Assembly (NCBI GenBank): GCA_964345775.1
Contig: CAYFSO010000001.1
Coordinates: forward strand, 11,488-75,487
Direction of reading: 5' to 3'
Length of the DNA stretch: 64,000 nucleotides
Origin: an uncultured Leptospiraceae bacterium
GTDB lineage: Bacteria > Spirochaetota > UBA4802 > UB4802
Shown here: piece after piece, positions 1 through 39,713 of the stretch
Position numbering within the stretch: position 1 is the stretch's first letter
Layout: every line of letters starts with the position of its first letter
Position numbers and translations under genes: made by a program
Notes under the pieces: model-generated
Databases searched by the model: none
The model's input: the letters and a program-made list of their open reading frames with translations, nothing else
What the model was told of the DNA's origin: nothing

Positions 1-1012
1 GGGACTGACAAAAAAATTTATTAAGGCAATGAAGGCATCCGGAATGGTTATCGGGGCACTGTATGACGATGCCCCTTCATACTCCGGGTCAACCATTATC
101 AACGAACTTGCAAAACTGCACAGGCACAGGGGATGTGATTCGGTCATAGCCATGGGTGCCGGTCCGGTTGCAGACATAGCAAAAGGTGTAAACCTGCTTG
201 CAACATTTAAAGAAGAAAACATTCTTATTTTCAGGGACAGGACAATCAGCCAGCACCTCAATCCGCTGGTAATGATCCCCGCAGGAGGACAGCTTGGCGG
301 CGAGATGTCCAGCATGGCTCATATCGAATCATTTGTGCTGCCATCAGATCACCTGTTCCCTGACGTGGTTGTCCTCGATGACAGGATGACACGTCCAGGT
401 TCTTCGGAGGCGGCCGTTAATTCAGCCATGGCATCACTGACCCATGCCATCGAGGCCAGTGCTTTTCCGCATAACGATCCCATAAATGACGCGTATGCGC
501 ATGCCACCATACAGTTCGTCTATGAGAATTTACTGAAGTCGGCAAAACGACCCAACAACAGGGCTGCCGGACTGGCACTTGCAAATGCATCTGCCAGCGG
601 AGATGTCTGCCTGTCCAATTCCCCGGCAGGACTGGTAAAACTCCTGGCAAATGCCATTTACGAAGAGACGGGAATACCTCACGGCATCAGCATGGGGATC
701 ATCCTGCCCTATCACCTGCAGTTGAAGCTCGATTCCCGGAAGAAGGTCCGGGAGGAGCTTTTGATGGCAATGACCGGTATTGACGAATACGCGCAGACGC
801 CGGCAAAGGAACGGTCGTCACGTGCGGTTCAACTGCTCTGGAAGCTCCAGGATGATCTTTCCAGAATATTGCCACGGTCATTCAAGGAACTTAACGTGCC
901 GGGGTACAAGTTGAAATCAATCGCTGAGCGTGCGGCACTGCTCAGCGAGAAACGCTACAAGCCCACCGAGGCATTGAAGCTTCTCACCCAGGCGTGGGAA
1001 GGACGGGCATAA
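1..1012 (+). CDS. Iron-containing alcohol dehydrogenase family protein, 5'-partial and lacking metal ligands. The reading frame is open from the window edge, so the gene starts upstream of the window.
   Basis: Paralog of the gene at 1628..2890, sharing the C-terminal ...AWEG end and the LANASA...PHGI block. The nucleotide-loop motif reads GAGPVADIAKGV instead of GGGSxxDxAKGV. The Fe ligands are substituted relative to the downstream paralog: MDALTH becomes MASLTH and HTLGH becomes KLLAN. Confidence 0.75.
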   Translation, partial: GLTKKFIKAMKASGMVIGALYDDAPSYSGSTIINELAKLHRHRGCDSVIAMGAGPVADIAKGVNLLATFKEENILIFRDRTISQHLNPLVMIPAGGQLGGEMSSMAHIESFVLPSDHLFPDVVVLDDRMTRPGSSEAAVNSAMASLTHAIEASAFPHNDPINDAYAHATIQFVYENLLKSAKRPNNRAAGLALANASASGDVCLSNSPAGLVKLLANAIYEETGIPHGISMGIILPYHLQLKLDSRKKVREELLMAMTGIDEYAQTPAKERSSRAVQLLWKLQDDLSRILPRSFKELNVPGYKLKSIAERAALLSEKRYKPTEALKLLTQAWEGRA

Positions 1013-1036
1013 TGACAGGAGCAAACGGAGGAATAT

Positions 1037-1582
1037 ATGGACTATAACAGGTATCCCGAGATACACCCGGGCGGCAAGCCCTTCAAAAAGATATACCTTG
1101 CCATTATGCTCTGGGTGGTGGGACGGGCCATGCAGGCAGCCGGCCGCACCGACAGGGAGCTGAAAGAGGAATTCGCCGCACTGCGTGATGACTTCCTCCT
1201 CAAGCTCTGGGTTCTTCCCGCCGGCCCCGCCATGCTGGTAGGCAGGGACGACAAGGGACGGGTGAAGTACTTCGGCTGGAAAGAACAGGGCAAAAAGCCA
1301 ACCCTGACCATGAGCGTGAAGAACATCGAGGCGGCCATGCTGCTTTTCACCTTCCAGGAGTCAACCACCATCGCCACTGCCCGTGAACGGCTGGTGGTAG
1401 ACGGGGATCTTCCCGATGCCTGCGCGGTGGTACGGGTGCTGAACACGGTGGAAACCTACCTGCTGCCAAAGGTCATCGCGAAACTGGCGGTGAAACGCTA
1501 CCCAAAATGGTCGCAGATGAATCCCTTCAGGAAACATTTTGGCAGAATCGCGGTATACGCCCGCACCTTCCTGGGGGTATAG
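1037..1582 (+). CDS. Hypothetical protein of 181 aa sitting between the two Fe-ADH paralogs.
   Basis: Intact ORF with a GGAGG RBS 7 nt upstream of the ATG. I recognise no motif. A hydrophobic stretch LAIMLWVVG lies near the N-terminus. Confidence 0.5.
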   Translation: MDYNRYPEIHPGGKPFKKIYLAIMLWVVGRAMQAAGRTDRELKEEFAALRDDFLLKLWVLPAGPAMLVGRDDKGRVKYFGWKEQGKKPTLTMSVKNIEAAMLLFTFQESTTIATARERLVVDGDLPDACAVVRVLNTVETYLLPKVIAKLAVKRYPKWSQMNPFRKHFGRIAVYARTFLGV

Positions 1583-1627
1583 CATGACATATATGGTATG
1601 TATAAATACAACGAGAGAGGTATAAAC

Positions 1628-2890
1628 ATGCAGTTACCAGGTTATTATGAATTCTGTTCACGCGTGAAGATGATATCAGGGCACAAGGCCCTTGAAGAAA
1701 TACCCGAAGCCCTTCTTAACCTGAAGGCAGAGAAACCCCTGATCATCACCGACAAGGGGGTTGCCGGTGCAGGCCTTATCAAACAGGTTACTGCCGCAAT
1801 GAACAAGGCAAAGAAGACATCAAAGGTGAAAGTAGGAGCAACCTACGACGATGTACCGCCCGATTCAGACATAAAGGTGGTAAACGAGGTAGCAAAGCTC
1901 TACAAGAGCAAGAAGTGCGACTCCATTATCGCCGTAGGAGGCGGTTCTGTTCTTGATACTGCAAAAGGTGTGAACATCGTTGTGTCAGAAAATGCTTCAG
2001 ATCTCATGCAGTATGCCGGGTACGGTGCCATAAAGAGAAAGCTGAACCCGGTTATTGCCATCCCCACCACTTCTGGCACCGGTTCCGAGATGACACTTGC
2101 GGCAGTTATCGCCGATCATTCCAATAACATCAAGATGGTATTCGGGTCATATTTCCTTCTTCCTGATTATGCCATCATAGATTCAAGAATGACAAAGACA
2201 CTGCCGGCATCCATTACCGCATTTACCGCCATGGACGCACTCACCCATGCCATCGAGGCATATACGTGCCTTGCCAAGAACCCGTTGAGTGACACAATGG
2301 CCATGTCCGCCATACAGCTCATCACCCATAACGTGGTGAACGTGGTGAAAAAGCCCAATGACATGGAGGGCAGACTTGCCCTTGCTAACGCGTCTGCAAT
2401 GGCAGGTATAGCCTTTTCCAACTCCATGGTAGGAATGGTGCATACCCTTGGCCATGCAACCGGTGGCGTGTGTAACGTACCCCATGGCATATGCATGAAC
2501 ATACTGCTTCCTTACGGCCTGGAGTACAACATGCACAAAACCGGTAAATACACTGGCGAACTGCTCTACCCCATGGCCGGGGAAGAGGTATATAACAGTA
2601 CCCCGGAAAAAGAACGACCTGTAAAAACCGTTGAACATGTGCGAAAGCTCATACAGGATTTGCACGATGCAACTGACGGGAAACATCCAAGGTGGTTCAA
2701 GGAAGTATATGACAGGGACGGGAACCAGATGGTACCCCGCGAGAAACTGCCGGATATCGCACGTACAGGAATGAGCGACGCCTCCCAGTTCTATAACCCC
2801 GAAGACCTCGATTACAACGATTTACTCTGGGTGATGGAGAACGCCTGGGAAGGAACACCACTGGACAGAAAGAAAGTCAAGAAAGGCTGA
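1628..2890 (+). CDS. Iron-containing alcohol dehydrogenase with canonical motifs.
   Basis: The GGGSVLDTAKGV nucleotide-binding loop is present. Metal ligands are present as AMDALTHAIEAY, HTLGH and PHGICM. The start was chosen at the ATG preceded by GAGAGAGG; the ORF track begins at 1598. Confidence 0.85.
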   Translation: MQLPGYYEFCSRVKMISGHKALEEIPEALLNLKAEKPLIITDKGVAGAGLIKQVTAAMNKAKKTSKVKVGATYDDVPPDSDIKVVNEVAKLYKSKKCDSIIAVGGGSVLDTAKGVNIVVSENASDLMQYAGYGAIKRKLNPVIAIPTTSGTGSEMTLAAVIADHSNNIKMVFGSYFLLPDYAIIDSRMTKTLPASITAFTAMDALTHAIEAYTCLAKNPLSDTMAMSAIQLITHNVVNVVKKPNDMEGRLALANASAMAGIAFSNSMVGMVHTLGHATGGVCNVPHGICMNILLPYGLEYNMHKTGKYTGELLYPMAGEEVYNSTPEKERPVKTVEHVRKLIQDLHDATDGKHPRWFKEVYDRDGNQMVPREKLPDIARTGMSDASQFYNPEDLDYNDLLWVMENAWEGTPLDRKKVKKG

Positions 2891-2994
2891 CATTCAACAG
2901 ACAGCATTCATGGCATGCCGCTTCCCGGCATGCCATGTCACCATTTCCCCTCCATTATCAACTCCACGCCTCAAGTAATTATTTGTAGCTTCTC

Positions 2995-3044
2995 AAAACC
3001 AGAGTGCCGCCCCGCCTTCGGCGGGGCGGCACTCTGGTTTTTTC
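2995..3044. terminator. Bidirectional rho-independent terminator between the convergent Fe-ADH and acylase genes.
   Basis: aaaaccagagtgccgccccgcc-ttcg-ggcggggcggcactctggtttttt. The GC-rich stem is perfect and about 20 bp long. It is flanked by an A-run on the left and a T-run on the right. Confidence 0.85.
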
Positions 3045-3235
3045 AGTAGTTAGCAGCAAAAGCATTTATTGTGCCCCCTGAAAATGAGAAGCGCGGTAGA
3101 ACTCAGCTATAACAGCATTGGACTTACAGACCACAGCCGGAAAAAAATGGACCATTCCCGGTCACTTGCCCATTCACTGGAGAACCTCACGGACCAGATC
3201 GTGACATTGAAACAGGTTATGGAATAACCCGGTTA

Positions 3236-5638
3236 TTACTCCTTCAACGGCTCAAGCGTATATTCGTTTTCAGCATGCTCCTTGATCATTTTATCACTGA
3301 ACCACCAGTATACCTTTTCACCGCTCATAAAGGCATCGGCCTGGTCTTTAAAATGCGGGTCAAATATCCTGCCGCTTGTACCCGCAGAAAGCACAGACAG
3401 CACCCTGTCATTATCGGCAAAATCAACCACCATGCGCATTGCGGCAGAAACCGTTACCTGGTAGGGATCGGTAAACTTGTAAATGGCCCGGTACAGTGTC
3501 TCACCTGAGCCATCCATGGGATACGGGCCCTCCCCAATTATGTACTTGAGGGCACCCTCCCGCATGATGGCACTTACGAACCCCTTTTGATGCAGGTCTC
3601 CCCACACGTATTGCCCGGGATCGGATCCGTACTCATCAAGCACCTGGCGTGCAGAGGCAAGTATAATGTCTTCCATCCGTTCTGTCTTTTCCGTTGTTGT
3701 ATCATCAAACCAGACCGAACTGCCCGAGAGCACCATTTCCTCAAACCTGTTCTGCCAGAAATACCATGAATCCAGCATGGTGCCTGTCAGTTCTTCACCA
3801 AGCTCGTCCCTGAATGTATTCATGGCCATATTCCTGTATACTGCCTGCATTACTGCCGGGGCGGCGGTATCTTTCCTGTCAAGGAAGTCCCAGCTTTTCA
3901 GTATCTCACCCATCTGCTTTGTATCTTTCTGTTCAAGAAGAACCCTGCTTATAACAGGTGCCAGCTTTTCGGCCAGCTTGTTCTTGATATCACGCTGAAA
4001 TGCCCATGAATCATCGGCACTTATTTTTTCCTTTGAACCAAACAGTTCCATCATTCGTGCATACCTGTAATACGATGCGAAATAGGATGACACGTAATAG
4101 GGATAACCGGAGAACACCGTATTGTGATTGGAAGTACCAACCCAGCCTTTATCGGGGTTGGTCCATGATGGCATTTTGTTACAGGGTATCCATCCGGTCC
4201 AGTTGTCCTTCCCGTCCTTCACCACGTACGGAACCGTACTTTCACCCTGTGAACGTATGGGAAGTCGACCGGTTGTATGCCAGGCAATGTTTCCATCGGC
4301 ATCGGCGTACACAAAGTTCAGCATGACCATGGTAACCTTGCCCAGCTCCTTTTCAACGTCAAAGACGTTCTTACAATTGACCAGATCTTCAAGGCCTGTA
4401 ACCGGGCTCATGGTCTCGAAAGGAGACCATCTTACCGTGATGACCCTGTCGGTTTTAAGAGCGGGCATTACATTCGATATTACCGGTCCGCGCTTTGTCA
4501 GCCTGATGGTTATCTCTTCTTCACGAAATCCCTTCTCCGCATCACCATCTTTTATTTTCAGGGTTTCGGTAATTGTCTCAAACGGGATTGAGCGGGATCC
4601 CTCCATGTACCTGTTCTCGTTTTTCGGATCCACCGTCTCAATGTAGAGGTCCTGTGCGTCACCGTATGAATTGGTGATCCCAAAGGCAACATGTTCGGTT
4701 CTTCCAATGATCATGCCGGGCATTCCCGGGATAATGGCCCCAACCGCCCTGAACTCCGGGGTGATAAGGCCCATGGGATACATGGGGCCGGGGATCATGG
4801 TTGTTTCCAGGTGCGGGTCGTTGCACAGCATGGCCTTCCCGCTTTCTGTTCTTGAGGGCGATATGGCCCAGTTGTTGCTTCCCACTTCAAGCGTGAAAGG
4901 ATCTTTCAACATGGCCATCAGTTGCTCATCTTTCGAAAGGTCTATACCAATTGCTTCAAGGTTATCCAATGCGGGCCGCCTGGTATTATTTGCAAGTGAT
5001 GCTCCATCCTCGGGATTGGTGTTTATGGGAAATATCTCCCGTGCCTTTGCCGGGCCAACCTTTTCCACCAGCATCTGCGCCACCATCTCGGTGTCAATAT
5101 TGGCCGCGGTGCTCCACCCCATGTAATAGAGTATTGAGAGGATATCGTCAATTTCCCATTTCGATGGCTGTATTCCCGCCAGGCTGAACTCCACGTGATG
5201 GTTATCTTTCTGGTTTTCAATGTACTGGTTTACCCCATCCGCATATGCCTGGAAGAATGCCCTGCTTTTGTGGCTCAATATCTTCGCGTGTTTTTTCGCA
5301 TTCCTGTGAAAACCAAGGGTTCGCATTCGTGTATCCAGGCCCTTCGCCTGTTCACCTGCCAGTTCACAGATACGTCCCTGGGCAAACATGCGGGTCAATT
5401 CCATCTGGAACAGCCTGTCCTGTGCGCTAATGAACCCCTGTGCAAGAATGGCATCATGAAGATCATCCGCGTAAACATACGCCATTCCCTTCTCGTCCCG
5501 CACAACTTCAATTTTGCCATGCAGGCCATCGACAGAAATCGTACCGTCATCCTGGTAATTGTTCACGGTGTGTACAAGTATCAGTATTCCAATAATTATA
5601 ACAGCAAGCACCATACCGGCAATCTTTGCAATCTTCAT
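3236..5638 (-). CDS. Penicillin amidase / acylase family protein (Ntn hydrolase; it could be an AHL acylase), secreted.
   Basis: The translation contains the G-SNNW-A motif (EVGSNNWAISP) that marks the autoproteolytic beta-subunit N-terminus of penicillin/AHL acylases. It has an N-terminal signal/TM segment MKIAKIAGMVLAVIIIGILIL. A GGAGG RBS lies upstream. Length is 800 aa. Confidence 0.85.
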   Translation of the reverse strand: MKIAKIAGMVLAVIIIGILILVHTVNNYQDDGTISVDGLHGKIEVVRDEKGMAYVYADDLHDAILAQGFISAQDRLFQMELTRMFAQGRICELAGEQAKGLDTRMRTLGFHRNAKKHAKILSHKSRAFFQAYADGVNQYIENQKDNHHVEFSLAGIQPSKWEIDDILSILYYMGWSTAANIDTEMVAQMLVEKVGPAKAREIFPINTNPEDGASLANNTRRPALDNLEAIGIDLSKDEQLMAMLKDPFTLEVGSNNWAISPSRTESGKAMLCNDPHLETTMIPGPMYPMGLITPEFRAVGAIIPGMPGMIIGRTEHVAFGITNSYGDAQDLYIETVDPKNENRYMEGSRSIPFETITETLKIKDGDAEKGFREEEITIRLTKRGPVISNVMPALKTDRVITVRWSPFETMSPVTGLEDLVNCKNVFDVEKELGKVTMVMLNFVYADADGNIAWHTTGRLPIRSQGESTVPYVVKDGKDNWTGWIPCNKMPSWTNPDKGWVGTSNHNTVFSGYPYYVSSYFASYYRYARMMELFGSKEKISADDSWAFQRDIKNKLAEKLAPVISRVLLEQKDTKQMGEILKSWDFLDRKDTAAPAVMQAVYRNMAMNTFRDELGEELTGTMLDSWYFWQNRFEEMVLSGSSVWFDDTTTEKTERMEDIILASARQVLDEYGSDPGQYVWGDLHQKGFVSAIMREGALKYIIGEGPYPMDGSGETLYRAIYKFTDPYQVTVSAAMRMVVDFADNDRVLSVLSAGTSGRIFDPHFKDQADAFMSGEKVYWWFSDKMIKEHAENEYTLEPLKE

Positions 5639-5827
5639 CTCAAACCTCCATATTAGTGAACGGCATTCAGCATCTTTACATGAGTACCGGTATTAATCAA
5701 GAACAAAGCGGAATCTTAACACATTTAAGAAGAATTAGATTGACTGACAGCATCAGCGGGCGTATACTACAGTATAAAGTCAAATGAACATATACATAGT
5801 TGATCCTACTGGAGAGATGTGTACAGG

Positions 5828-7756
5828 ATGGAAACACCGTCAATACTCATCGTTGAAGACGAGGCCATAGTAGCCCTTGATATACGAAAAAGTCTCGAAA
5901 GCCTCGGGTACAACATAGCCGGCATGGCTTCTTCAGGTGAAGAAGCCATGGATATCGCCCGTGATACCAGGCCCCATCTTGTGATAATGGATATTGTTCT
6001 GCCCGGGAAGATGGACGGTATTGAAACCGCAAGCCAGATACATGCCGAGATAGACTGTCCCATTATATACTTAACCGCCCACTCTGACAGGGCAACAGTG
6101 GAGCGGGCCACCGAGACCATGCAGTATGGCTACCTGGTCAAACCCATCACCACCAACGAGTTGTACTCCGCCATTGAGACCACCCTGCAGCGCAGGAAAC
6201 TTGAATTACAGATACGTGACAGCGAAGAGAAGTATCGAATAACACTTAATTCAATCATGGACGCCGTCATAACAACCGATATCGACGGAAAGATCATCAG
6301 GATGAACCCGGCAGCCGAAAAGCTGTCAGGCTGGCCAGGGGACGAGGCACTGGGCCGTGATGTCTCTACTGTCATTGATATATTTGACGCAGAAACCAGG
6401 GAAAAAAACCAGCATCCCAGCTTCCGCATTCTTCAGGAAGGGCAGAGCATACGGTTTGACCGTCACATGGTACTACAGTCCCGGGACAACACTGAAAGAA
6501 GAATATCCTGTAATGGCGCCCCCCTGAGGTATTCAGACGAAGATGTATCAGGTGCGGTACTGGTGCTGCAGGATATAACCGAAAAGTTCAAGCTTGAGAA
6601 TGAACTGCGCCAGTCACAGAAAATGGAGTCCATCGGACGCCTTGCAGGCGGTGTGGCGCATGATTTCAACAATATTCTTACCACCATTATCGGGTACGCA
6701 GATCTTGGGCTCAAGGAGCTGGATGAAGACAACCCGCTGTACGAGATGATGAAAGAGATCGGCTCCGCGGGGAAACGCGGTTCCTCGCTCACCCAGCAGC
6801 TGCTTTCCATCAGCCGCAAACAGGTACTTACCCTGCAGCCTCTTCCTGTCAATGATGTAATCACGGGGATGGAAAAGATGCTCCACCGCCTCATAGGGGA
6901 GGACGTGGAACTGAGCATTCGCCTCGACCCCCTCAATACGTGCATCAGGGCCGACCATTCGCAGATCATACAGGTACTCATGAATCTCTGCATCAACGCG
7001 CGTGACGCCATGCCCGACGGCGGCATAATAATCATCGAAACCAATACCATGCTGATCGATGATACGTATACCCAGCATCACCCCTTTATTAAGCCGGGAG
7101 AATACGCTATGCTTACTGTCAGCGATAACGGCGTGGGGATGGACGAGGAGACACAGAGTCACATCTTTGAACCCTTTTACACCACAAAGGAAAAGGGGAA
7201 GGGAACAGGCCTGGGCCTTTCAACCGTGTACGGGATAATCAAGCAGCATAATGGTAATATTCTTGTTTACAGTGAACCGGGTAAAGGTACTACCTTCAGG
7301 ATATACCTTCCATCTATCGAGGAACGGATGGATCGGGAAAAACCCGTACCCAGGGAATTGCAGGAGCAGCTCAACTTAAATGGATCCATCCTTGTTGTTG
7401 AAGACAATGATGAATTGAGAAAGGTTGCTTCAAGCATATTGAAACGGTACGGTTTTACCGTGATGGATGCCGGAAGGGTAGACGAGGCAATAGAGATCGC
7501 ACAAAAAGAAGAAGGGAATATTGACCTGCTCCTTACTGACGTGGTAATGCCCGGCATGAACGGTAAAGAATTGTACGAAGAAATTCAGGATTGCCAGCCA
7601 CATATGAAAGTATTGTACATGTCCGGATATACCGAAGACATCATATCCAGCCATGGCATATTACAAGAGGGGATCAATTTCATCCAGAAACCATTTACCG
7701 TACATGGTCTTGTGCAAAAGATACACAAAGTTATGGAAAGCGGCGCATCGGGCTAA
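5828..7756 (+). CDS. Hybrid sensor histidine kinase with the domain order REC-PAS-HisKA-HATPase-REC.
   Basis: N-terminal receiver domain (ILIVEDEA...VIMDIVLPG). H-box: AGGVAHDFNNILTTI. HATPase motifs: DNGVGMD and GTGLGLSTV. A second receiver domain sits at the C-terminus (ILVVEDN...LLLTDVVMPGMNG). The ORF track begins at GTG 5819; the ATG at 5828 is the more likely start. Confidence 0.85.
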   Translation: METPSILIVEDEAIVALDIRKSLESLGYNIAGMASSGEEAMDIARDTRPHLVIMDIVLPGKMDGIETASQIHAEIDCPIIYLTAHSDRATVERATETMQYGYLVKPITTNELYSAIETTLQRRKLELQIRDSEEKYRITLNSIMDAVITTDIDGKIIRMNPAAEKLSGWPGDEALGRDVSTVIDIFDAETREKNQHPSFRILQEGQSIRFDRHMVLQSRDNTERRISCNGAPLRYSDEDVSGAVLVLQDITEKFKLENELRQSQKMESIGRLAGGVAHDFNNILTTIIGYADLGLKELDEDNPLYEMMKEIGSAGKRGSSLTQQLLSISRKQVLTLQPLPVNDVITGMEKMLHRLIGEDVELSIRLDPLNTCIRADHSQIIQVLMNLCINARDAMPDGGIIIIETNTMLIDDTYTQHHPFIKPGEYAMLTVSDNGVGMDEETQSHIFEPFYTTKEKGKGTGLGLSTVYGIIKQHNGNILVYSEPGKGTTFRIYLPSIEERMDREKPVPRELQEQLNLNGSILVVEDNDELRKVASSILKRYGFTVMDAGRVDEAIEIAQKEEGNIDLLLTDVVMPGMNGKELYEEIQDCQPHMKVLYMSGYTEDIISSHGILQEGINFIQKPFTVHGLVQKIHKVMESGASG

Positions 7757-11395: not shown

Positions 11396-12478
11396 ATGCG
11401 ATACTTTATCACAGGCCTTCTCCTGGGTATAGCCCTGGGTTTTGCCCCGTGGCTTATGCCCGATCACTCGTTCAAGCTATACCCGCAATGGCAGGGAGGC
11501 ATATCGGGGGCTTCATCAATAGAACATTCGCCATATGCCCCTGATTCAAATGTCCTCATTGGCCCCGTCGAAATTGAAAACGGCTATTACATGTTCAAAG
11601 AGAATGGAAAGCCTGCTGCCAGCCCCGGGACCGATGACCATCTCGTTTCCCCGTCCGGTGACGGGAAATATTATGTGCAATACGGGAAACTTTCAACGGA
11701 AATATCCTACTGCAATTACAGGGGAGAGCCTTTCTGGGCCATGTCAACAGGTAAATACCCGCACCTCTCGTACGGGGGAAAACTCATACTTCTGGTTACC
11801 GCTGACAACAGCTCTATCAGCCTTGTAGATTACAATGGCAACAGCACCGGCGCCGGGACCATCAGCGGGAGATTTTGCACCACCATTGGTTTTTCAAGAC
11901 CTGGAAATGCTGCCTCCCTGGGATTCATGGAAGGCTCGTATTATTTTTTGAACAATACCGGTGAGATTGTACACAAGGGGAGCACTCCCGAAAACTCCCT
12001 GGTCAAGACAACCGGTATCAGCGGCAACGCGCGATACGGCGCCGTACATGCGGGATTACCCGGTAAAGGCGGGGATACGCTATTCCTCCATGATATCGCC
12101 GATGAAGACTCATACATGGTGTCCCTTAAGGCAGAAAGCCTGGCAAGGGCCTCCATGACCATCAACAACAATGGTACTGGCGCCTTCCTGGGCATGTCGC
12201 ATGTGTACCTTGTAAACATCAAAAGGGAAACGCATGACGCCATAGAGATACCTGAAAGAAGGGAGGGACACAGTTCAATACAGTATTCTGACAGCCTGTA
12301 CATGATATCGTATACCGAAAAGAACGGCACATCCCGGTTCTATATTTTTCACGAGAACGGGAATGTCATCTTTACAAGGACATATCCGGACGAACCATTC
12401 CTTGATGTCATGGTGCGGGGACAGTCAATTCTTCTAAGAGGTTCTGATACGCTGTACTGCTATAGTTACCAGATCTAA
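11396..12478 (+). CDS. Hypothetical membrane-anchored extracytoplasmic protein.
   Basis: N-terminal TM segment YFITGLLLGIALGFAPWLM. The start abuts the sigma-factor stop (TGA at 11391-11393, ATG at 11396). No recognisable motif. The 3' end overlaps the convergent GT2 gene by about 70 nt. Confidence 0.5.
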   Translation: MRYFITGLLLGIALGFAPWLMPDHSFKLYPQWQGGISGASSIEHSPYAPDSNVLIGPVEIENGYYMFKENGKPAASPGTDDHLVSPSGDGKYYVQYGKLSTEISYCNYRGEPFWAMSTGKYPHLSYGGKLILLVTADNSSISLVDYNGNSTGAGTISGRFCTTIGFSRPGNAASLGFMEGSYYFLNNTGEIVHKGSTPENSLVKTTGISGNARYGAVHAGLPGKGGDTLFLHDIADEDSYMVSLKAESLARASMTINNNGTGAFLGMSHVYLVNIKRETHDAIEIPERREGHSSIQYSDSLYMISYTEKNGTSRFYIFHENGNVIFTRTYPDEPFLDVMVRGQSILLRGSDTLYCYSYQI

Positions 12479-18191: not shown

Positions 18192-19757
18192 TTATTCCCA
18201 GCGGATAGTTGTTCCTTTATTGTCCCTGTGAACCTGGAGACACTCAAGGCTCACAAGACGTTCCAGTTCCCTGTGTACTTCGCCATTACAGCCGGAAAGA
18301 TTATCCGAAATATGCTTTTCCAGGAGGCCCATCACCGCTGCATCAGGTGCACCATTGGTCATACCGCTGAATTGTTCCACCAGGCGATTCATAATAATAT
18401 CCCGGGTGATCTCAAACGAACGTATGTTCTGATATAATGTTCTATCTGCCTCTGACAGTTTTTCACCCTTTTCAAACTTGACCTGTATGGTACGTATACA
18501 GTGGACAATACTGTCATTAAAACCGTTTACGATGTTGTCAATCTCCCTGTGTGAGATAAACCCTGTATCAGATACTGACCTGTTGGCATCATACTGATCC
18601 CAGTCATCGGTAAGGATGCGAAGCCCGTATTCATCCTTCTTATCCCGAACCTCAGTACCGGGAAACGGTGCCAGGATATGATAACCGTAATTGGGGCTGA
18701 GATTGCTGGCAAATTCCATGGTTTTTTTTATCGTACCAGGTGTCTCACCCGGAAGTCCCAGGATGTACGAGGTCATGGGATCTATGCCAACCTCGTTGCA
18801 GAGGTCAACCGCCTGCTGGCATTTTTCCAGTGTAATTTTCTTTTTTACCCTATCCAGTATCTCCTGGTTGCCACTTTCAATACCAAAACAGAGCGTTGTA
18901 CACCCTGCTTCCTTGAGGTTTTCCAGCAATTCACGGTTTACCGTATCTACACGGGCAAAGGCCGTCCAGGGATGATCAATCCCCCTGTCAATTATCTCAC
19001 GGCAGATGGCAATGCAGCGTTTTTTGTGGGACGTGAAAAGGTCGTCTACCACGTTGATCTGCCTGAATTTGAGTTTCGACAGCATCTCGAACTCATCCAC
19101 CACGCGTTTCACATCAAAATACCGCACCCTGCGTCCCACCATTTTACTTCCCACGCAGAATATACACGAAAAGGGACACCCCCGTGATGTCATCAGGTTC
19201 ACAGGAAACCCCAGTGCCCGGTACTTACTCAATTCTACCAGGTGTCGCGCCGGGAAAGGCAGTATGTTAATATCTTCTATAAACGCCCTTCGGGGATTGT
19301 GATGGATCTTACCATTACGCCTGTATGAAATTCCCTTTACGCGTTCAAGCCGTGACGGTGAAGCAAGGTTTTCAAGAAGATCCACAAATGTAAGTTCACC
19401 CTCACCTCGAACAATATAATCGATCCAGCTGTTATCACGCAAAATTGCAGTAGCATCAAAGGTGACGTGCGGACCACCCATGACGGTGACTATACCGGGC
19501 GCACAATCCCTGTAATCCCTGAGAATTGCAAGGCTGCGATTTATATTCATGGTTACGCCGGTGCCGCCAACAACATCCGGTTTAAACGTGTTCACCACTT
19601 CTTGTACACGTTCTTTTGAATACGGTGTAACTATATAGTCCTCTATCCTGACCGTTGCACCCTGCTCAACAAGGTAGGCGGCCAGGGTCATAAGACCAAA
19701 TGGGGGTGACGGTGACTCCTCGAAAGGATAGGGAGGGTTAATTAACAGCACCTTCAT
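18192..19757 (-). CDS. B12-binding-domain radical SAM protein.
   Basis: N-terminal cobalamin-binding-like domain (MKVLLINPPYPF...). Radical SAM CxxxCxxC motif: RGCPFSCIFC. A C-terminal extension of about 200 aa has unknown function. The start was chosen at the ATG with a GGAG RBS; the ORF track extends to 19856. Confidence 0.8.
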   Translation of the reverse strand: MKVLLINPPYPFEESPSPPFGLMTLAAYLVEQGATVRIEDYIVTPYSKERVQEVVNTFKPDVVGGTGVTMNINRSLAILRDYRDCAPGIVTVMGGPHVTFDATAILRDNSWIDYIVRGEGELTFVDLLENLASPSRLERVKGISYRRNGKIHHNPRRAFIEDINILPFPARHLVELSKYRALGFPVNLMTSRGCPFSCIFCVGSKMVGRRVRYFDVKRVVDEFEMLSKLKFRQINVVDDLFTSHKKRCIAICREIIDRGIDHPWTAFARVDTVNRELLENLKEAGCTTLCFGIESGNQEILDRVKKKITLEKCQQAVDLCNEVGIDPMTSYILGLPGETPGTIKKTMEFASNLSPNYGYHILAPFPGTEVRDKKDEYGLRILTDDWDQYDANRSVSDTGFISHREIDNIVNGFNDSIVHCIRTIQVKFEKGEKLSEADRTLYQNIRSFEITRDIIMNRLVEQFSGMTNGAPDAAVMGLLEKHISDNLSGCNGEVHRELERLVSLECLQVHRDNKGTTIRWE

Positions 19758-20046
19758 TGACTTCACTCCTCGTGCCAATAGAACTGGAAACATTGCCACG
19801 CGCACAACCTGGCAGGGATCCAGGCAAAAAATTTTGATGACCAGAAAAGCAAGCATATATCAAAAGGTTGTTTATTTGTAAATAATATTTTGAAAAACAC
19901 CTTCCATGATCATTTTTTTCAAACATAACAGTGAAATGTATTTGACAGAAAGTGACTATTTTAAAAAATACTTGACTGCCCTCTTCAAGGGATAAGAAAC
20001 TGGAAAACCGCCAAATAAGACATGCGAACTACGCAAGGAGCGTTAA

Positions 20047-20328: not shown

Positions 20329-21651
20329 ATGTTGTTAACCACATTCAGAGGCGGCATCCATCCTCCCGGACACAAGGAACTGAGCAGGGATAAGGCTTTT
20401 ACCAATCTTTCAGTTCCTCACAGGTGCTATATTCCCCTGCAGCAGCATATTGGAAAGCCAGCAGTTCCCCTTGTTGAAGTAGATGATATAGTCGAAGAGG
20501 GCCAGATGATAGGAAGGGCCGATGGCTTTATAAGTGCCAACGTGCATGCCTCCATTCCCGGAAAAGTAGTAGAAATTGCCGAGTACCCAACCGTATACTC
20601 TGAACATGGGAAATGTGTGGTTATAGAAACCGAGGGCTCGTTCTCATCGTCAGGCCAGTTAAAAGAATCCAGGAACTGGGAAGATATCTCACCCGAAGAG
20701 CTCATGTCCCTGATTCATGATGCAGGTATCGTTGGCATGGGAGGTGCCGCGTTCCCCACGGCGGTAAAGCTTAGCCCGCCCGAACACAGGGAAATTGACA
20801 CATTCGTGATCAACGGTGCCGAATGCGAACCATACCTTAGCGTTGACGACATGCTGATGCAGACCTACCCCGACGAGATCATCGAAGGGATACGCATCGT
20901 TCTGAAGATACTGGAAATAAACCATGCCGTTATCGGCATAGAAAAGAATAAACCCAAAGCCGTAAAGTCCATCTCGCGGGCCCTTGAAAAAGGGAACTTC
21001 AACGAGTCCATTGAATTGAATGCTCTCCCCGCCAAGTACCCGCAGGGAGCAGAAAAACAGCTCATCTATACAATGCTGAAACGAGAAGTCCCTTCCGGTG
21101 AACTCCCTCTCGATGTAGGGGTAGTCGTAAATAACGTGGGAACCATTTTTGCAATACGTGAAGCAGTTATAAACGGGAAACCACTCATTGAGCGGTATCT
21201 TACCATTACAGGAAGCATTGTAAAAAATCCAGGCAACTACAAGGTGAGGATCGGCACCAGTATATCGGATGTTATCCATGAATGCGGGGGACTTACCGAC
21301 AAACCCGCGAAGATAATAATGGGTGGACCAATGTGCGGCATGGCATTGAATCATCTTGAAATATCAGTAGTTAAAGGTACATCAGGGATACTTTTTCTCG
21401 GACAGGATGAAGTGAACATTCACGAGTACAGCCCATGTATACGATGCGGCAGATGTGTTGCCGCATGTCCCATACACCTGATGCCCAACGAGCTTGGTAA
21501 TGCGGTTGAGAAGCAGCGGTACGACATTGCCGAGAGATTACATCCCTTTGACTGTATAATGTGCGGTTCATGTACATACGTGTGCCCGTCAAAACGCCCA
21601 TTGAGCCATTTCATTAAACTGGCCCAGGTAACGTTCAGCGCCAAACGCTGA
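20329..21651 (+). CDS. rnfC: Rnf electron transport complex subunit C.
   Basis: N-terminus MLLTTFRGGIHPPGHKELS. It has an NADH/FMN-binding core and two 4Fe-4S motifs, CIRCGRCVAACP and CIMCGSCTYVCP. Confidence 0.9.
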   Translation: MLLTTFRGGIHPPGHKELSRDKAFTNLSVPHRCYIPLQQHIGKPAVPLVEVDDIVEEGQMIGRADGFISANVHASIPGKVVEIAEYPTVYSEHGKCVVIETEGSFSSSGQLKESRNWEDISPEELMSLIHDAGIVGMGGAAFPTAVKLSPPEHREIDTFVINGAECEPYLSVDDMLMQTYPDEIIEGIRIVLKILEINHAVIGIEKNKPKAVKSISRALEKGNFNESIELNALPAKYPQGAEKQLIYTMLKREVPSGELPLDVGVVVNNVGTIFAIREAVINGKPLIERYLTITGSIVKNPGNYKVRIGTSISDVIHECGGLTDKPAKIIMGGPMCGMALNHLEISVVKGTSGILFLGQDEVNIHEYSPCIRCGRCVAACPIHLMPNELGNAVEKQRYDIAERLHPFDCIMCGSCTYVCPSKRPLSHFIKLAQVTFSAKR

Positions 21652-29486: not shown

Positions 29487-32234
29487 TTACACGATATCCA
29501 GCACCATGATAGTTACGTCATCTTCAAAGCTTTCGTTGTGCCCCATGCCTGCCCACCTTCTGATGGATAGAACAACGTCTTCCACAAGCGCCTCGCCATC
29601 ACGGTGAACATCATCGGCAATTTTTTTTATGAACTGTTCATATCCAAAAAGCTTACCTTCACTGTTTCGGGTTTCAATTATGGCGTCTGTATACAGAACT
29701 ATCCTGTCACCGGAATGTATATTCACAGTAGTTTCATCATATGTACCGTCTTCAACCCATCCTATGGGGAGAGACTTGGCCCATTCGGTAACTGTTTTGT
29801 CTTCCTGGAATAACAGCGGTGCCCAGTGTCCCGCGTTGGAAACAGTCATAATGTTCTTACTTGTGTCGATGAACACATAACAGGCCGTAATGTAATTACT
29901 CTGGAGGTAATCATGCATGGTCCTGTTAATGCTTGTCATCAGTTTACCCGGCTGGTCTGCATAATCCATGTAAAATCCGGTCACCATCTTGAACATGGCA
30001 CAAATTATTGCGGCAGAGATCCCATGACCTGAAACATCGGCCATGATAAAACCGGTATGATCTTCATCAATTTTGATAATATCATAGAAATCCCCTCCCA
30101 TCTCCTGCATGGGGATATACCTGTATGCCACCTGTATATGCGCCAGTTCAGGCAATTCCTGGATAACCACCGAGTGATGTATCTGGTGGGCAATAAAGAG
30201 GTCTCTCTTGATCATGCTCAGTTCATTATGTTCTTCCACCGACCTCTTCATTGAAATAAGGCTGCGCACCCTTGCTATCAACTCCTCCCTGTTCACCGGT
30301 TTTGAGAGATAGTCATTTGCCCCTGACTGCAGGCCGGTAATGATGTCCTCTACCCTGCTTTTGGCAGTCAGCATCATAACCGGCAACTCGTGCATGGAAT
30401 ACTTCTCCCTGATCTTCCTGCAAACATCATAGCCTGACATGCGGGGAAGCATTACATCAAGCAGTATCAGGTCGGGCAACTGGCCTTCGTCTATCTTGTC
30501 CAGCAGGCGGTCAGCGCTCATTACATGATCAACGTGGTATCCTTCCATTGTTAGAAAATTGATCAGCACCTGCAGGTTGACCGGGTCGTCATCAACAATA
30601 AGCACATGCTTTGGATCTTCGTCATCACTGACCTGCGCATGTTGAAGTGTCAACTTTACTTCATCGTTAAAAATCCCGGTGTATTTCCAGGGAACTGGTT
30701 CTTCCCCGGCTTCAACAATACGGGTGGGTTCAACTGGTTCCGCTTTTGGCATGGTAAAATAGAACACTGAGCCCTGTCCGGGGCTGGATTCAGCCCATAT
30801 TATACCCCCGTGCAGCTCCACGAGTTTCCTGGTAATGGCAAGGCCAAGCCCCGTCCCACCGAATCTTCTGGCATCAGAACCATCCGCCTGTTCAAATGAT
30901 TCAAATATTCGCTCAATCCTGTTTTCGGGTATCCCTATCCCTGTATCGGCAATTGATACCTCAATTATGTTTTTGCCGGGTATTTCACGTGAGGATACCG
31001 TGATAGATCCCATTTCGGTAAACTTTACCGCGTTACCCACCAGGTTCATCATTATCTGCTGTATACGGTTCTCATCACCTTCAACAAACTCTGTTTCCCC
31101 CGGAATATCCACTTCCACTGACAATTGCCTGGTCTCAATAACCGGTTGCAGAATTGACAGAACGAACTGAGCAACGGAGCATATATTCACCGTTGTTCGT
31201 ACAAGTTCGATATCCCTGTTCTTCAACTTGGAAAAATCAAGGATGTCATCAACCAGGTATGAAAGCCTTTGCCCGCTTCTCACTATCAGGGCAAGGTCAT
31301 GAACCGCTTCTTCGGGCATCCGGCCTCCAACACCACCAAGGAGTGATTCTGCAAGTCCTATCATGCCATTGAGTGGTGTACGTAATTCATGGGATATATT
31401 GGCAAGGAACTCGTCTTTTAAATGGTCAAGTCTTTTCAGATCCCTGTTGTTGTCCTGCAGCTGCGAGATCTCCATGTTTATCATCCTGGTGAGATGATTG
31501 AAGGTATTTGCCAGCCGGCCTATCTCATCATTGCCCGTCACAGGTACCTCGTAATTCATGTTCCCGCTTTCAAATTCTGATACAGCAGATGTCAACCTGT
31601 CTATTGGCCTTGAAAAAAACCTGCTGAAAAAAAGGCCCAATATACTTACAACCAGGATAACCATGCCGGTGGCAACAAGTGCAAACATTCTCATTCTGCG
31701 AACAGGTGCCAGTATTTCTTCTTCTGAATACAACAACCTCGCCAGGCAAAGGGGACTTTTCCCGGGTAGTGAAGCCGTCTGTACAAACTGGTAACACTGG
31801 CCATTACCATTGGGACATTTCACGTTTGAAAACCCCGTATTCCCTTCCAGGTGTTCCACCATCTCTTCATCCAGTTGTGCCATCTTCTCATCTTTAAGAT
31901 CGATACCGGGGAACCGGGCAAGGACAATCCCGTTATAACGGGTCTTGGATGAAAGGAGAACCGCCTCTGCCGATATCAAGCCATCTTTGTCGAGCACCTG
32001 CATCATCTTCATGTATTCACCGGCATCCACCCGGGTTGAGTTGAGGTCTCCTCCATTCAGTAGCAGGGTATTCAGCACGGTTCGCGCCAGCATGCTTCCC
32101 TGCAGTTCTCCCTGGTGCATCAGCATTGATATTGTCTCATCCTTCTGCCTGTCCAGTATAAAGAGGGACACCGGGAGAGCAGCAAGCAGTGTGATTATTA
32201 TAAAGGCGATGATGAACTTGTAGCGTAACCTCAT
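29487..32234 (-). CDS. Multidomain sensor with the domain order periplasmic sensor-TM-HAMP-HisKA-HATPase-REC-PP2C (SpoIIE/RsbU-like phosphatase).
   Basis: Two TM segments flank a periplasmic region of about 160 aa. H-box: LANISHELRTPLNGMIG. HATPase motifs: NLVGNAVKFT, DTGIGIP and GGTGLGLAI. Receiver domain: VLIVDDDPV...LILLDVMLPRMSGYD...LSKP. C-terminal PP2C domain: GGDFYDII...GFIMADVSGHGISAAI. Length is 915 aa. Confidence 0.85.
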   Translation of the reverse strand: MRLRYKFIIAFIIITLLAALPVSLFILDRQKDETISMLMHQGELQGSMLARTVLNTLLLNGGDLNSTRVDAGEYMKMMQVLDKDGLISAEAVLLSSKTRYNGIVLARFPGIDLKDEKMAQLDEEMVEHLEGNTGFSNVKCPNGNGQCYQFVQTASLPGKSPLCLARLLYSEEEILAPVRRMRMFALVATGMVILVVSILGLFFSRFFSRPIDRLTSAVSEFESGNMNYEVPVTGNDEIGRLANTFNHLTRMINMEISQLQDNNRDLKRLDHLKDEFLANISHELRTPLNGMIGLAESLLGGVGGRMPEEAVHDLALIVRSGQRLSYLVDDILDFSKLKNRDIELVRTTVNICSVAQFVLSILQPVIETRQLSVEVDIPGETEFVEGDENRIQQIMMNLVGNAVKFTEMGSITVSSREIPGKNIIEVSIADTGIGIPENRIERIFESFEQADGSDARRFGGTGLGLAITRKLVELHGGIIWAESSPGQGSVFYFTMPKAEPVEPTRIVEAGEEPVPWKYTGIFNDEVKLTLQHAQVSDDEDPKHVLIVDDDPVNLQVLINFLTMEGYHVDHVMSADRLLDKIDEGQLPDLILLDVMLPRMSGYDVCRKIREKYSMHELPVMMLTAKSRVEDIITGLQSGANDYLSKPVNREELIARVRSLISMKRSVEEHNELSMIKRDLFIAHQIHHSVVIQELPELAHIQVAYRYIPMQEMGGDFYDIIKIDEDHTGFIMADVSGHGISAAIICAMFKMVTGFYMDYADQPGKLMTSINRTMHDYLQSNYITACYVFIDTSKNIMTVSNAGHWAPLLFQEDKTVTEWAKSLPIGWVEDGTYDETTVNIHSGDRIVLYTDAIIETRNSEGKLFGYEQFIKKIADDVHRDGEALVEDVVLSIRRWAGMGHNESFEDDVTIMVLDIV

Positions 32235-36011: not shown

Positions 36012-37220
36012 TCAAACCCCGTGCATCCCGATGATGGCTATACTGCATACATTCATCATGGGAAATCCACCCAGGTTGTGGGTCAAGCCCAGCTTCGGAT
36101 CCTTCAACTGCCGCTCTCCTGCCCGTCCATGAAGCTGGAGGTACACCTCGTACAGCATACGCAGCCCCGATGCGCCTATGGGATGGCCAAAGCATTTCAA
36201 CCCGCCATCGGTCTGGCATGGTATCTGCCCATCCAGGTCAAAAAAGCCGTTTAAAATATCTTCCGGTGCACTGCCCCTTTCAGATATATGCAGGTCTTCC
36301 ATTGTAATAAGTTCTGTAATCGAAAAGCAGTCGTGAACTTCCAGCATGCTCAGTTCTTTCCTGGGATCTTTAATGCCCGCTTCACTGTACGCTTCACTGC
36401 TCGCCTTTGATGTGGTAACAAAATGCGCGCCATCCCAGTTGCTGAACGCAATTTCCTCACCGTTACTCAATGCCAGTTGCAATGCCTTCACTGACACGAA
36501 ATCCTTTTTCCCCATCTTTTTTGCAAGTTCGGGGGTGGTGACTATGGCACAGGCCGCGCCATCACTGACCCCGCAACAATCAAAAAGGCCAAGCGGGAAG
36601 GCGATCATGGGTGCGTTCAGTACCTGGTCCTCTGTGACCGCCTTCTGCAAATGGGCTTTTTTATTCAGCACGCCATTCCTGTGACTTTTTGCCGAAACAT
36701 GGGCCATGGCCTTTTTCAGGTCTTCCATCTTTACACCGTATTTGGCCGTGTATCCGCTTGCCAGCATGGCAAAACAACCGGGCGCCGTTACGTTGGGAAA
36801 CCAGAGCCCATTCAACGTGCCGATGGCAGAACTGAACTCCGGAAGTCCACCATACCCCACATCCTTGAGTTTTTCCGACCCTATGGCCAGGGCAATGTCA
36901 TACGCGCCTGATGCCACTGCATATACTGCCCCCCTGAAAGCCTCTGTGCCGCTTGCACAAAAATTTTCAGTGCGGGTTACTGCTATATTAGGAAACCGCA
37001 ATGCCATGGAGGCGGGCAGCGCGCTTTTCCCTACGTTGACCTCGTCAAAACAACTGGAAAACCATGCGGCCTCTACCTGGTTCTTTTCTATACCTGCATC
37101 CTGGATAGCTTCTTCGAAGGCTTCCACCATCAGGTCCTCTGAACTGTCTTCCCACCGTTCACCAAACTTTGTACAGCCCATTCCTATTATGGCTACCTTG
37201 TCACGAATACCCTTAGCCAT
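36012..37220 (-). CDS. SCPx-type (non-specific lipid-transfer protein-like) thiolase.
   Basis: MAKGIRDKVAIIGMGCTKFGERWE... has the thiolase fold with the active-site Cys in GMGCTKFG. A GGAGG RBS is present. It overlaps the upstream gene by 8 nt. Confidence 0.8.
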   Translation of the reverse strand: MAKGIRDKVAIIGMGCTKFGERWEDSSEDLMVEAFEEAIQDAGIEKNQVEAAWFSSCFDEVNVGKSALPASMALRFPNIAVTRTENFCASGTEAFRGAVYAVASGAYDIALAIGSEKLKDVGYGGLPEFSSAIGTLNGLWFPNVTAPGCFAMLASGYTAKYGVKMEDLKKAMAHVSAKSHRNGVLNKKAHLQKAVTEDQVLNAPMIAFPLGLFDCCGVSDGAACAIVTTPELAKKMGKKDFVSVKALQLALSNGEEIAFSNWDGAHFVTTSKASSEAYSEAGIKDPRKELSMLEVHDCFSITELITMEDLHISERGSAPEDILNGFFDLDGQIPCQTDGGLKCFGHPIGASGLRMLYEVYLQLHGRAGERQLKDPKLGLTHNLGGFPMMNVCSIAIIGMHGV

Positions 37221-38682: not shown

Positions 38683-38744
38683 TACTTTCCTCCTCCTGGA
38701 CACCCGGCGGGAAATCTCCCGTCGGGTCGTTTTTGCGTTCTTTT

Positions 38745-39653: not shown

Positions 39654-39713
39654 ATACAACCTCCCATGTATTTATCATGAATTATACTTGTTTTAATTAC
39701 CATTCACCATCCA

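Follow-up and report, generated by a model that had tools for sequence, protein, structure and literature searches.

An aldehyde oxidoreductase-linked gene module with paired canonical and degenerate iron-dependent alcohol dehydrogenases and a predicted SCP2-like protein in an uncultured Leptospiraceae bacterium

The locus and its genes

We analyzed a 64,000-nucleotide stretch of DNA from an uncultured Leptospiraceae bacterium (contig CAYFSO010000001.1 of assembly GCA_964345775.1, positions 11,488 to 75,487 of the forward strand; hereafter the window). It begins with two tandem genes for iron-dependent alcohol dehydrogenase (Fe-ADH) paralogs, termed ADH1 and ADH2, which are separated by a gene for a 181-amino-acid protein that we call X. 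Window positions 1..3049 are the distal part of the gene module studied here, and ADH1 is truncated by the window edge. The features of this part, together with the gene for an aldehyde oxidoreductase (AOR) that was found further upstream on a related contig (L001), are:

2..1012, plus strand: ADH1, degenerate Fe-ADH paralog (336 codons plus stop; N-terminus upstream of the window)
1024..1645, plus strand: second copy of a ~620-nt direct repeat, comprising the ribosome-binding site, X, the spacer between X and ADH and the first ~45 nt of ADH2 (from comparison with L001)
1027..1031, plus strand: GGAGG ribosome-binding site of X, 5 nt ahead of the ATG (read directly from the sequence)
1037..1582, plus strand: X, 181 aa, predicted SCP2-like fold, invariant C-terminal LAVKRYPxW (from the open reading frame, its homologs and an AlphaFold2 model)
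1598..2890, plus strand: ADH2, canonical Fe-ADH (430-codon open reading frame; GGGS, TTSGTGSE, D213/H217/H282/H296)
2997..3049, plus strand: terminator-like hairpin, 20-bp stem with 15 G-C pairs, followed by a T run (from the sequence)
L001:8066-9979, outside the window: AOR, 637 aa, AFOR_N and AFOR_C domains (Pfam)

Both ADHs belong to the Fe-ADH fold by two Pfam domain models. PF00465 and PF25137 score 46.1 and 66.0 bits, respectively, for the 336 residues of ADH1 in the window, and 148.6 and 138.8 bits for ADH2, all above the gathering scores of 31.3 and 27. An earlier reading made from the letters alone (the sequence-only reading) had described tandem Fe-ADH paralogs with a 181-aa gene between them that has its own GGAGG. 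This is confirmed: the paralogs lie on the plus strand and are 36% identical (E = 4e-67), and the ribosome-binding site precedes the ATG of X, for which no Pfam or NCBIfam family was matched. Frame 2 of the plus strand is open from base 2 to the ADH1 stop codon at 1010-1012. The full-length ADH1 gene is found at L001:10562-11746; the full-length protein has 384-394 aa, which places ~48-58 N-terminal codons beyond the window start. The true start of ADH2 is probably the ATG at 1628, preceded by GAGAGG and giving 420 aa, since this start is used by most gene calls of its protein cluster. The intrinsic terminator-like hairpin at 2997..3049 marks the end of the operon. An Rfam scan of the window found nothing.

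The genes upstream of the window were taken from L001, a contig of a JGI metagenome that differs from the window by 7 mismatches in a 5695-nt overlap (99.88% identical) and reaches 10.7 kb further upstream. Its gene order is AOR - X - ADH1 - X - ADH2, followed by an acylase gene. The closest structures to the AOR are PDB 9mqx (1e-112) and 1aor (1.4e-109), and also 9g7j, which are AORs of the Pyrococcus furiosus type. With both AFOR_N and AFOR_C and its nearest characterised relatives in the AOR clade, the upstream gene encodes a large subunit of the AOR/tungsten oxidoreductase (WOR) kind.

The two X genes lie in the copies of a direct repeat of ~620 nt (L001 9988-10610 versus 11758-12380), which shows ~2 mismatches until identity collapses. 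The repeat is bounded by a point ~12 nt ahead of the X ATG and one ~45 nt inside the following ADH gene, and its first copy lies between AOR and ADH1, upstream of the window. Since it extends into the 5' ends of the ADH genes, both ADH open reading frames start MYKYNERGINMQ. In a contig from a related species (L007), the five genes are in the same order and the repeat ends at the same boundaries. Within each genome the two X copies are near-identical (545/546 in L001, 546/546 in L007), yet only 450/546 positions agree between the two (82% DNA identity), which indicates that the copies undergo concerted evolution by gene conversion rather than stemming from a one-off recent event.

A repeat of this kind raises the question whether the second X copy is an artefact of metagenome assembly and the real genome has a single X. 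One short Logan contig (L002) reads AOR-X-ADH2, without the ADH1-X loop, several contigs break at X, and an exact repeat of 620 nt is hard for short reads. However, all four junctions (AOR to X, X to ADH1, ADH1 to X and X to ADH2) are present in independent assemblies (L001, L003, L095), another species shows the same arrangement with the same boundaries, and the repeat reaches the 5' ends of both ADH genes, which would not be expected from a strain mixture. We therefore consider an artefact very unlikely; L002 may represent either an assembly collapse or a recombinational deletion variant.

To place the locus in a wider context, one genome per species was scanned, which yielded 217 coding stretches, all from metagenome-assembled genomes (MAGs), and the open reading frames of the best 80 of these 217 loci, from species-representative genomes, were classified against seed proteins. 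One of the 217 stretches' sources is an Aminicenantes MAG, and the others are Spirochaetota (Leptospirales-like), Syntrophales and further Desulfobacterota. The combination of degenerate ADH, X and canonical ADH is found in ~70 loci, and each locus with enough sequence has one degenerate and one canonical ADH, in varying order. The main arrangements are:

AOR, degenerate ADH, X, canonical ADH: 30 loci
AOR, X, degenerate ADH, canonical ADH: 10 loci
X, degenerate ADH, canonical ADH, AOR: 7 loci
degenerate ADH, X, canonical ADH, without AOR in the locus: 9 loci

In at least five of the nine loci of the last type, more than 5 kb of flanking sequence on each side contains no AOR, so the trio of degenerate ADH, X and canonical ADH is a unit in its own right. 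Moreover, in 15 of 52 loci the stop codon of ADH1 and the start of X overlap, with 4 or 1 nt in common. The sequence-only reading had proposed a three-component unit and suggested looking for the same triad in orthologous loci. The triad does recur, in every sampled locus with enough sequence, but in the window's own lineage the unit continues upstream with AOR and a second X. The order AOR - X - ADH1 - X - ADH2 is thus a lineage-specific variant of a widespread four-gene module. One 4.9 Mb genome (OW818666.1) has two complete modules of the order AOR, degenerate ADH, X, ADH (L036 and L043/L006, at 1.85 Mb and 4.53 Mb). Downstream of the second module alone are CobW, an 892-aa oxidoreductase with Fer4 and Pyr_redox domains and HypA, which points to dedicated metal insertion and an additional partner for electron transfer in this genome. 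A general link to metal insertion through CobW/HypA beside ADH2 was considered and dropped, as these genes are confined to this one genome.

A canonical and a degenerate alcohol dehydrogenase

The Fe(II) ligands of E. coli FucO are Asp196, His200, His263 and His277 (PMC10087678). When a 104-residue segment of ADH2 was aligned to residues 192-292 of FucO (1rrm), these four residues corresponded to D213, H217, H282 and H296 (alignment coordinates), so that ADH2 has the complete D-H-H-H set; its cofactor motifs GGGS and TTSGTGSE are intact as well. The same positions in ADH1 read Ala-His-Lys-His, and only two of the four ligands are kept. Its cofactor motifs are GAGP in place of GGGS, as already noticed in the sequence-only reading, and in addition AGGQLGGE in place of TTSGTGSE. 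That reading had gone further, however, and had seen the ligand Asp replaced by Ser, both histidines of HTLGH lost in KLLAN and only the histidine of the PHG motif retained, and hence a metal-free protein. The mapping on FucO bears this out in part: the ligand Asp and one ligand His of ADH1 are indeed lost, and the others are kept. MASLTH aligned with MDALTH places Ala opposite the Asp, with Ser one position further on. The first histidine of HTLGH, replaced by Lys, is a ligand, but the second, replaced by Asn, corresponds to FucO His267, which is outside the four listed ligands. Besides the PHG histidine, the ligand-2 histidine of T-H-A-I-E is also present. With two ligand histidines in place, the term metal-free is unsupported for the ADH1 of the window.

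Across the surveyed genomes, the ligand Asp is absent from all 81 degenerate copies, and the four ligand positions vary widely between orthologs (AHKH, THHP, IHHA, IHHH, LQRA, RESR, CDGR and others). In the regions of GGGS and TTSGTGSE, the degenerate orthologs conserve only the first Gly and the final G-x-E. In contrast, all downstream ADHs with a complete alignment have GGGS, TT(S/A)GTGSE and the ligand Asp, and all but that of L080 (D-H-Y-H) have D-H-H-H. One further locus (L090:2086-7151, CDLKET010000320.1) encodes an 861-aa fusion of AOR and X, then a fully degenerate ADH (M-I-P-A) and a second ADH whose GGGS and TTAGSGSE are intact but whose ligand positions read N-H-S-Y, a nominally canonical partner that is missing most metal ligands.

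Is ADH1 then a decaying pseudogene of a recent tandem duplication? It has lost catalytic motifs and evolves ~2 times faster than ADH2. Yet the frame of the degenerate ADH is intact in ~70 loci, from as many genomes, of at least three phyla. Moreover, in 17 close pairs the ratio of nonsynonymous to synonymous substitution rates (dN/dS, Nei-Gojobori) is 0.045-0.275 for the degenerate ADH, compared to 0.027-0.118 for the canonical ADH and 0.022-0.288 for X. ADH1 thus shows neither the broken frame nor the dN/dS near 1 of a pseudogene. A distance tree groups the canonical copies in one tight clade (64% mean pairwise identity) and shows the degenerate copies on long branches (39% mean identity), with a topology that mirrors that of their partners. 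This mirrored branching fits a single old duplication followed by co-inheritance, and the duplication is older than the split of the Spirochaetota and Desulfobacterota versions. A recent pseudogene, which would have overturned the sequence-only reading, is accordingly ruled out by the intact frames and a dN/dS of 0.05-0.28, and we reject this explanation as having next to no chance of being correct.

What selection appears to maintain is the fold. Columns that are at least 80% conserved number 72 in the degenerate copies and 198 in the canonical ones, and the 72 are largely Gly, Pro and core positions common to the active enzyme. Judged by these alignments, the degenerate ADH is under purifying selection for its fold and not for its catalytic site, which is the signature of a pseudo-enzyme. 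Variation of ligands and cofactor motifs between orthologs is the pattern expected of a site that is no longer used for catalysis, and ADH1 would thus be catalytically inactive. The notion of a dead pseudo-enzyme put forward in the sequence-only reading gains from the wide motif variation under maintained selection, but is tempered by the two histidines that the window copy keeps.

It is conceivable that ADH1 is still an enzyme, neofunctionalised with a reduced set of metal ligands (two to three histidines) or without metal, and acting on another substrate or at another step, for example as a second reductase. Such a role would agree with the histidines at two ligand positions of the window copy, with Syntrophales orthologs that have three histidines together with GGGA and TASGTGFE, and with the strong purifying selection. 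However, the Asp position is occupied by A, T, L, S, C, R, K, I, V, M, P or G in the orthologs, and those with LQRA, RESR and CDGR have none of the four ligands. The loops of GGGS and TTSGTGSE are unconserved, the difference between 72 and 198 conserved columns leaves mostly Gly, Pro and core positions, and no alternative conserved polar constellation is seen among the degenerate orthologs. We therefore regard an active ADH1 as improbable.

Still less probable, in our view, is that ADH1, and perhaps X, is regulatory, that is, an alcohol or aldehyde sensor similar to ErcA that modulates ADH2, AOR or transcription. The top NCBIfam match of both ADHs is indeed "alcohol dehydrogenase-like regulatory protein ErcA", and AraC-type regulators and sensor kinases recur nearby. 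Nevertheless, the ErcA match is generic: it scores 99.8 bits for ADH1 and 282.4 bits for ADH2 against a cut-off of 550, and the canonical ADH2 scores higher. Operon linkage, overlapping stop and start codons and one-to-one co-inheritance with ADH2 are more typical of subunits. A non-catalytic ADH1 that is retained for its fold is hence the reading that we carry forward.

Protein X and its links to AOR and the alcohol dehydrogenases

More than 400 homologs share 50-70% identity with X, and every one of them is either unnamed or annotated as hypothetical. A profile search of 1.84 billion representatives defined a family of 479 members (E <= 1e-3). An AlphaFold2 model of X, built with 32 homologs, reached a mean predicted local distance difference test score (pLDDT) of 82 and a predicted template modelling score (pTM) of 0.77. 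When the model was compared to the PDB with Foldseek, 47 of the 50 top matches were SCP2-fold proteins or domains (probability 0.84-1.0), with target-normalised template modelling (TM) scores of 0.45-0.63 to free-standing SCP2 proteins. The best matches were UbiJ-SCP2, SCP2-like 2 and AF1534 (E = 4.5e-4 to 1e-3, probability 1.0, TM 0.55-0.63), and others were mosquito and yeast SCP2 and SCP2 domains of alkylsulfatases. X is thus predicted to have the alpha/beta fold of SCP2. Beyond the SCP2 core it has a long N-terminal helix and two C-terminal helices with the invariant LAVKRYPxW. The N-terminal helix (residues 15-38) is hydrophobic or amphipathic, with an invariant Arg in the middle. No redox cofactor motif was found in X. 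We also considered that this helix might be a transmembrane anchor; this was rejected, since the invariant Arg interrupts it and the model packs it onto the sheet.

The connection between X and AOR is direct in many genomes. In three surveyed loci X is found in frame at the C-terminus of AOR, and in a search with one such fusion, AOR-X fusions of ~806 aa accounted for ~85 of 120 clusters at 90% identity among the matches listed. Among them are the fusions of the two subspecies of Desulfosarcina ovata, a sulfate reducer available in culture (WP_155308791.1 and WP_155321072.1). In D. ovata (AP021879.1), genes for a degenerate ADH (V-H-H-E) and then a canonical ADH come after the fusion. The multi-domain X proteins of the profile search have the size of AOR fusions (725-861 aa), and in both cases where the locus was inspected (P0179 and P0299) they proved to be AOR fusions; this search yielded no protein of the size of an ADH plus X. 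An AlphaFold2 model of an AOR-X fusion (pLDDT 87, pTM 0.79) has a disordered linker at 629-640. The connection between X and the ADHs, on the other hand, is seen in distant lineages of X. In all four that were sampled, an Fe-ADH gene directly follows X, and it is canonical in the three whose sequence extends as far as the motifs. AOR follows the ADH once in these lineages, and twice there is no AOR nearby. Since adjacency binds X to an ADH at the deepest level and fusion binds it to AOR, X would be an adaptor between the two.

Alternatively, X might not carry a ligand at all but be a maturation or assembly factor, or a tether that holds AOR and the ADHs at the membrane or at another location. 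Its long N-terminal helix (15-38) and the basic invariant LAVKRYPxW, which resembles a protein-contact surface, would suit such roles, and the Eis- and SpnK-type Foldseek matches suggest that SCP2 domains are structural in some enzymes. The invariant Arg in the middle of the helix, however, and the AlphaFold2 model, in which the helix packs on the sheet as in SCP2 proteins, argue against this explanation, and permanent fusion to AOR speaks against a transient maturation factor. We judge this explanation unlikely and retain X as an adaptor that putatively binds a ligand.

Some features distinguish the ADHs of the module. The canonical copies of the module lineage (as compared with L088:4163-5344 and L092:6510-7691) have a conserved 7-aa insert (DRDGNQM-like) and a C-terminal AWEG extension. 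The AWEG motif also occurs in the degenerate copy. Distant X homologs are followed by single ADHs of 393 aa, which lack both insert and extension.

The genes that recur next to the module are:

84-aa ThiS-like protein ending in GGG, the WorX of PMC13328260: 22 loci
four-cluster ferredoxin, WorS, in Syntrophales: 15 loci
AraC-type regulators with a membrane domain: 19 loci
long-chain acyl-CoA synthetase NF006134 (691 bits, cut-off 625): 11 loci
PlsB: 8 loci

The WorX, ferredoxin, acyl-CoA synthetase and PlsB neighbours agree with what is known of AOR and possibly with fatty substrates. The last two, together with the SCP2 fold, give a weak hint at fatty alcohols or aldehydes as substrates. In D. 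ovata (AP021879.1, L087:8328-8984) a protein of the DJ-1/PfpI family, which includes aldehyde detoxifiers of the glyoxalase type, is encoded directly upstream of the AOR-X fusion. A DUF3192 protein is encoded downstream of the ADHs, one gene beyond them in D. ovata and directly after them in L090.

In the window, the module is followed on the opposite strand by a gene convergent on the ADH2 terminator (3236-5638, minus strand). Its product of 800 aa is an Ntn-hydrolase of the penicillin amidase family that weakly matches PvdQ-like acylases, and other genomes do not conserve it as a neighbour of the module. A cluster similar to those of beta-oxidation (36012-40574, minus strand) comprises an SCP2-type thiolase, a KAS-III/ChsH2-like OB-fold protein, an SDR and a double MaoC hydratase, and an acyl-CoA dehydrogenase is encoded at 60498-61748 (plus strand). 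These genes are consistent with degradation of fatty acids or side chains in the same organism. Further genes have ordinary regulatory or transport roles: a B12-binding radical SAM protein (18192-19856, minus strand), FeoB (43038-45251, plus strand), a PAS/hybrid histidine kinase with receiver domains (5819-7756, plus strand) and a protein combining HAMP, histidine kinase, receiver and SpoIIE phosphatase domains (29487-32234, minus strand).

A proposed assembly and its relation to known systems

Taken together, we lean towards the view that the module encodes an assembly of alcohol/aldehyde/acid oxidoreductases with a pseudo-enzyme subunit and an SCP2-like adaptor. ADH2 would be the sole competent alcohol dehydrogenase and would interconvert alcohol and aldehyde with NAD(P), and AOR would interconvert aldehyde and carboxylate with ferredoxin. 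ADH1 would be a non-catalytic structural paralog and, since Fe-ADHs are oligomers, most likely a partner of ADH2; the scaffold proposed in the sequence-only reading is conjecture. X would attach to AOR and to the ADHs. By binding a hydrophobic alcohol or aldehyde, or handing it on, it may keep the reactive intermediate off the free pool. Such coupling would keep free aldehyde low, and the unfavourable ADH step would be drawn forward by the strongly exergonic AOR step, as reasoned from the established energetics of ethanol oxidation and from the systems of Pelobacter and Clostridium autoethanogenum (PMC4275255, PMC12727526). The window also encodes an RnfC-like protein (20329-21651, plus strand) with RnfC_N, Complex1_51K, SLBB and Fer4 domains. 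The source organism may thus have an Rnf complex, including this protein, that re-oxidises ferredoxin reduced by AOR. A bolder version, to which we give less than even weight, is an aldehyde-channelling metabolon in which X, free or fused to AOR, docks a heteromer of one active and one dead Fe-ADH onto AOR, and the hydrophobic or reactive aldehyde is passed between the active sites without being released.

Several points weigh against the proposed assembly. The window itself contains neither AOR nor the first X copy, and the physical complex of ADH1, X, ADH2 and AOR is something that we infer, as are flux direction and substrate chain length. The ADH1 of the window retains two histidine ligands, and the Syntrophales orthologs with three (IHHH, GGGA, TASGTGFE) have near-intact NAD motifs; some of the degenerate copies, that of the window included, may therefore still bind metal or cofactor. 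Metal-independent catalysis has been described for maleylacetate reductases, which belong to the same superfamily and are among the PDB matches. Regarding X, the Pfam SCP2 model (PF02036) scores below its threshold (13.3 versus 21.3 bits, E = 0.11), and a weak match is seen for no more than 3 of 32 family members (best E = 0.029). Moreover, SCP2 domains can be purely structural in places. Finally, the enzymes of known structure that are closest to ADH2 (methanol dehydrogenase, 1,3-propanediol dehydrogenase and FucO) act on short chains, so long-chain substrates are not favoured.

Many anaerobes use ADH together with tungsten AOR as their route for oxidising alcohols in syntrophy or for reducing acids to alcohols, and this route is also of relevance for biofuels. 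Aldehyde is toxic when free, and the ADH step is difficult on thermodynamic grounds; an adaptor and a pseudo-enzyme that tie the two enzymes together would, if real, explain how the intermediate is controlled. If the metabolon exists, it would be a new class of tungsten-oxidoreductase assembly beside WOR classes I-V and would contain the first obligate pseudo-enzyme subunit in the Fe-ADH family. The X family, an unannotated group of 479 representatives at 50% identity for which there is no Pfam or NCBIfam model, would widen the accessory repertoire of tungsten enzymes. The pair of ADHs would likewise be a clean and phylogenetically deep case of a catalytically degenerate paralog that is retained beside its active sibling. 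As the module is present in the cultured D. ovata (AP021879.1, WP_155308791.1), the hypothesis is directly testable.

How does the module compare to what is known? The canonical ADH2 of the window shares the fold, GGGS, the four ligands and 35-40% identity with FucO, DhaT, Zymomonas ADH2 and the methanol dehydrogenases of Bacillus and Cupriavidus, but its clade differs from canonical group-III ADHs by the 7-aa insert and the C-terminal AWEG extension. ADH1 shares the fold of group III and differs from it in the loss of the ligand Asp and one ligand His and in its degenerate NAD motifs. Pseudomonas ErcA (NF041833) is a precedent for a protein with the Fe-ADH fold and a role beyond bulk catalysis. 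However, both ADHs of the window stay below the 550-bit cut-off of its model and do not qualify as ErcA, the module lacks an ErcS-type partner, and a match that is stronger for the canonical ADH2 has no specific meaning.

For X, the best structural match of the model is the SCP2 domain of UbiJ (6h6o, 6h6p, 6h6n), at 15-17% identity. UbiJ serves the multi-enzyme metabolon of ubiquinone biosynthesis as a small SCP2 protein in which hydrophobic intermediates are held. Unlike UbiJ, X has the additional long N-terminal helix, the two C-terminal helices with LAVKRYPxW and different enzyme partners.

The AOR of the module can be related to a classification of June 2026, which sorts more than 4,000 tungsten oxidoreductases into WOR classes I-V with the accessory subunits WorS, WorN, WorABC and WorX (PMC13328260). 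In Spirochaetota it resembles the WorL of Class I with the ThiS-like WorX, and in Syntrophales the WorL of Class II with the four-cluster WorS. None of the five classes, however, has an SCP2-like partner or fusion or linked Fe-ADHs, and alcohol dehydrogenase and SCP2 are unmentioned in that work (PMC13328260). Literature searches on AOR with SCP2 or sterol carrier protein, on Fe-ADH pseudoenzymes and on Desulfosarcina AOR found no description of the module; the one pseudoenzyme paper that surfaced is an unrelated survey of microcompartments.

In terms of chemistry, an NAD-dependent ADH together with a tungsten AOR is an established route between alcohol and acid (PMC4275255, PMC12727526). Pelobacter oxidises ethanol syntrophically by an NAD-dependent Fe-ADH and a tungsten AOR (PMC4275255), and C. 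autoethanogenum reduces acetate to ethanol via ADH and AOR (PMC12727526). The module has the same catalysts, an AOR of the P. furiosus type and a canonical group-III ADH, and the same two-step chemistry. In those organisms, however, the enzymes are described as separate soluble proteins, whereas here they are encoded in one operon, to which a degenerate ADH and an SCP2-like protein, often fused to AOR, are added. These two accessory proteins are undescribed, and the chemistry is that of the known ADH and tungsten AOR route.

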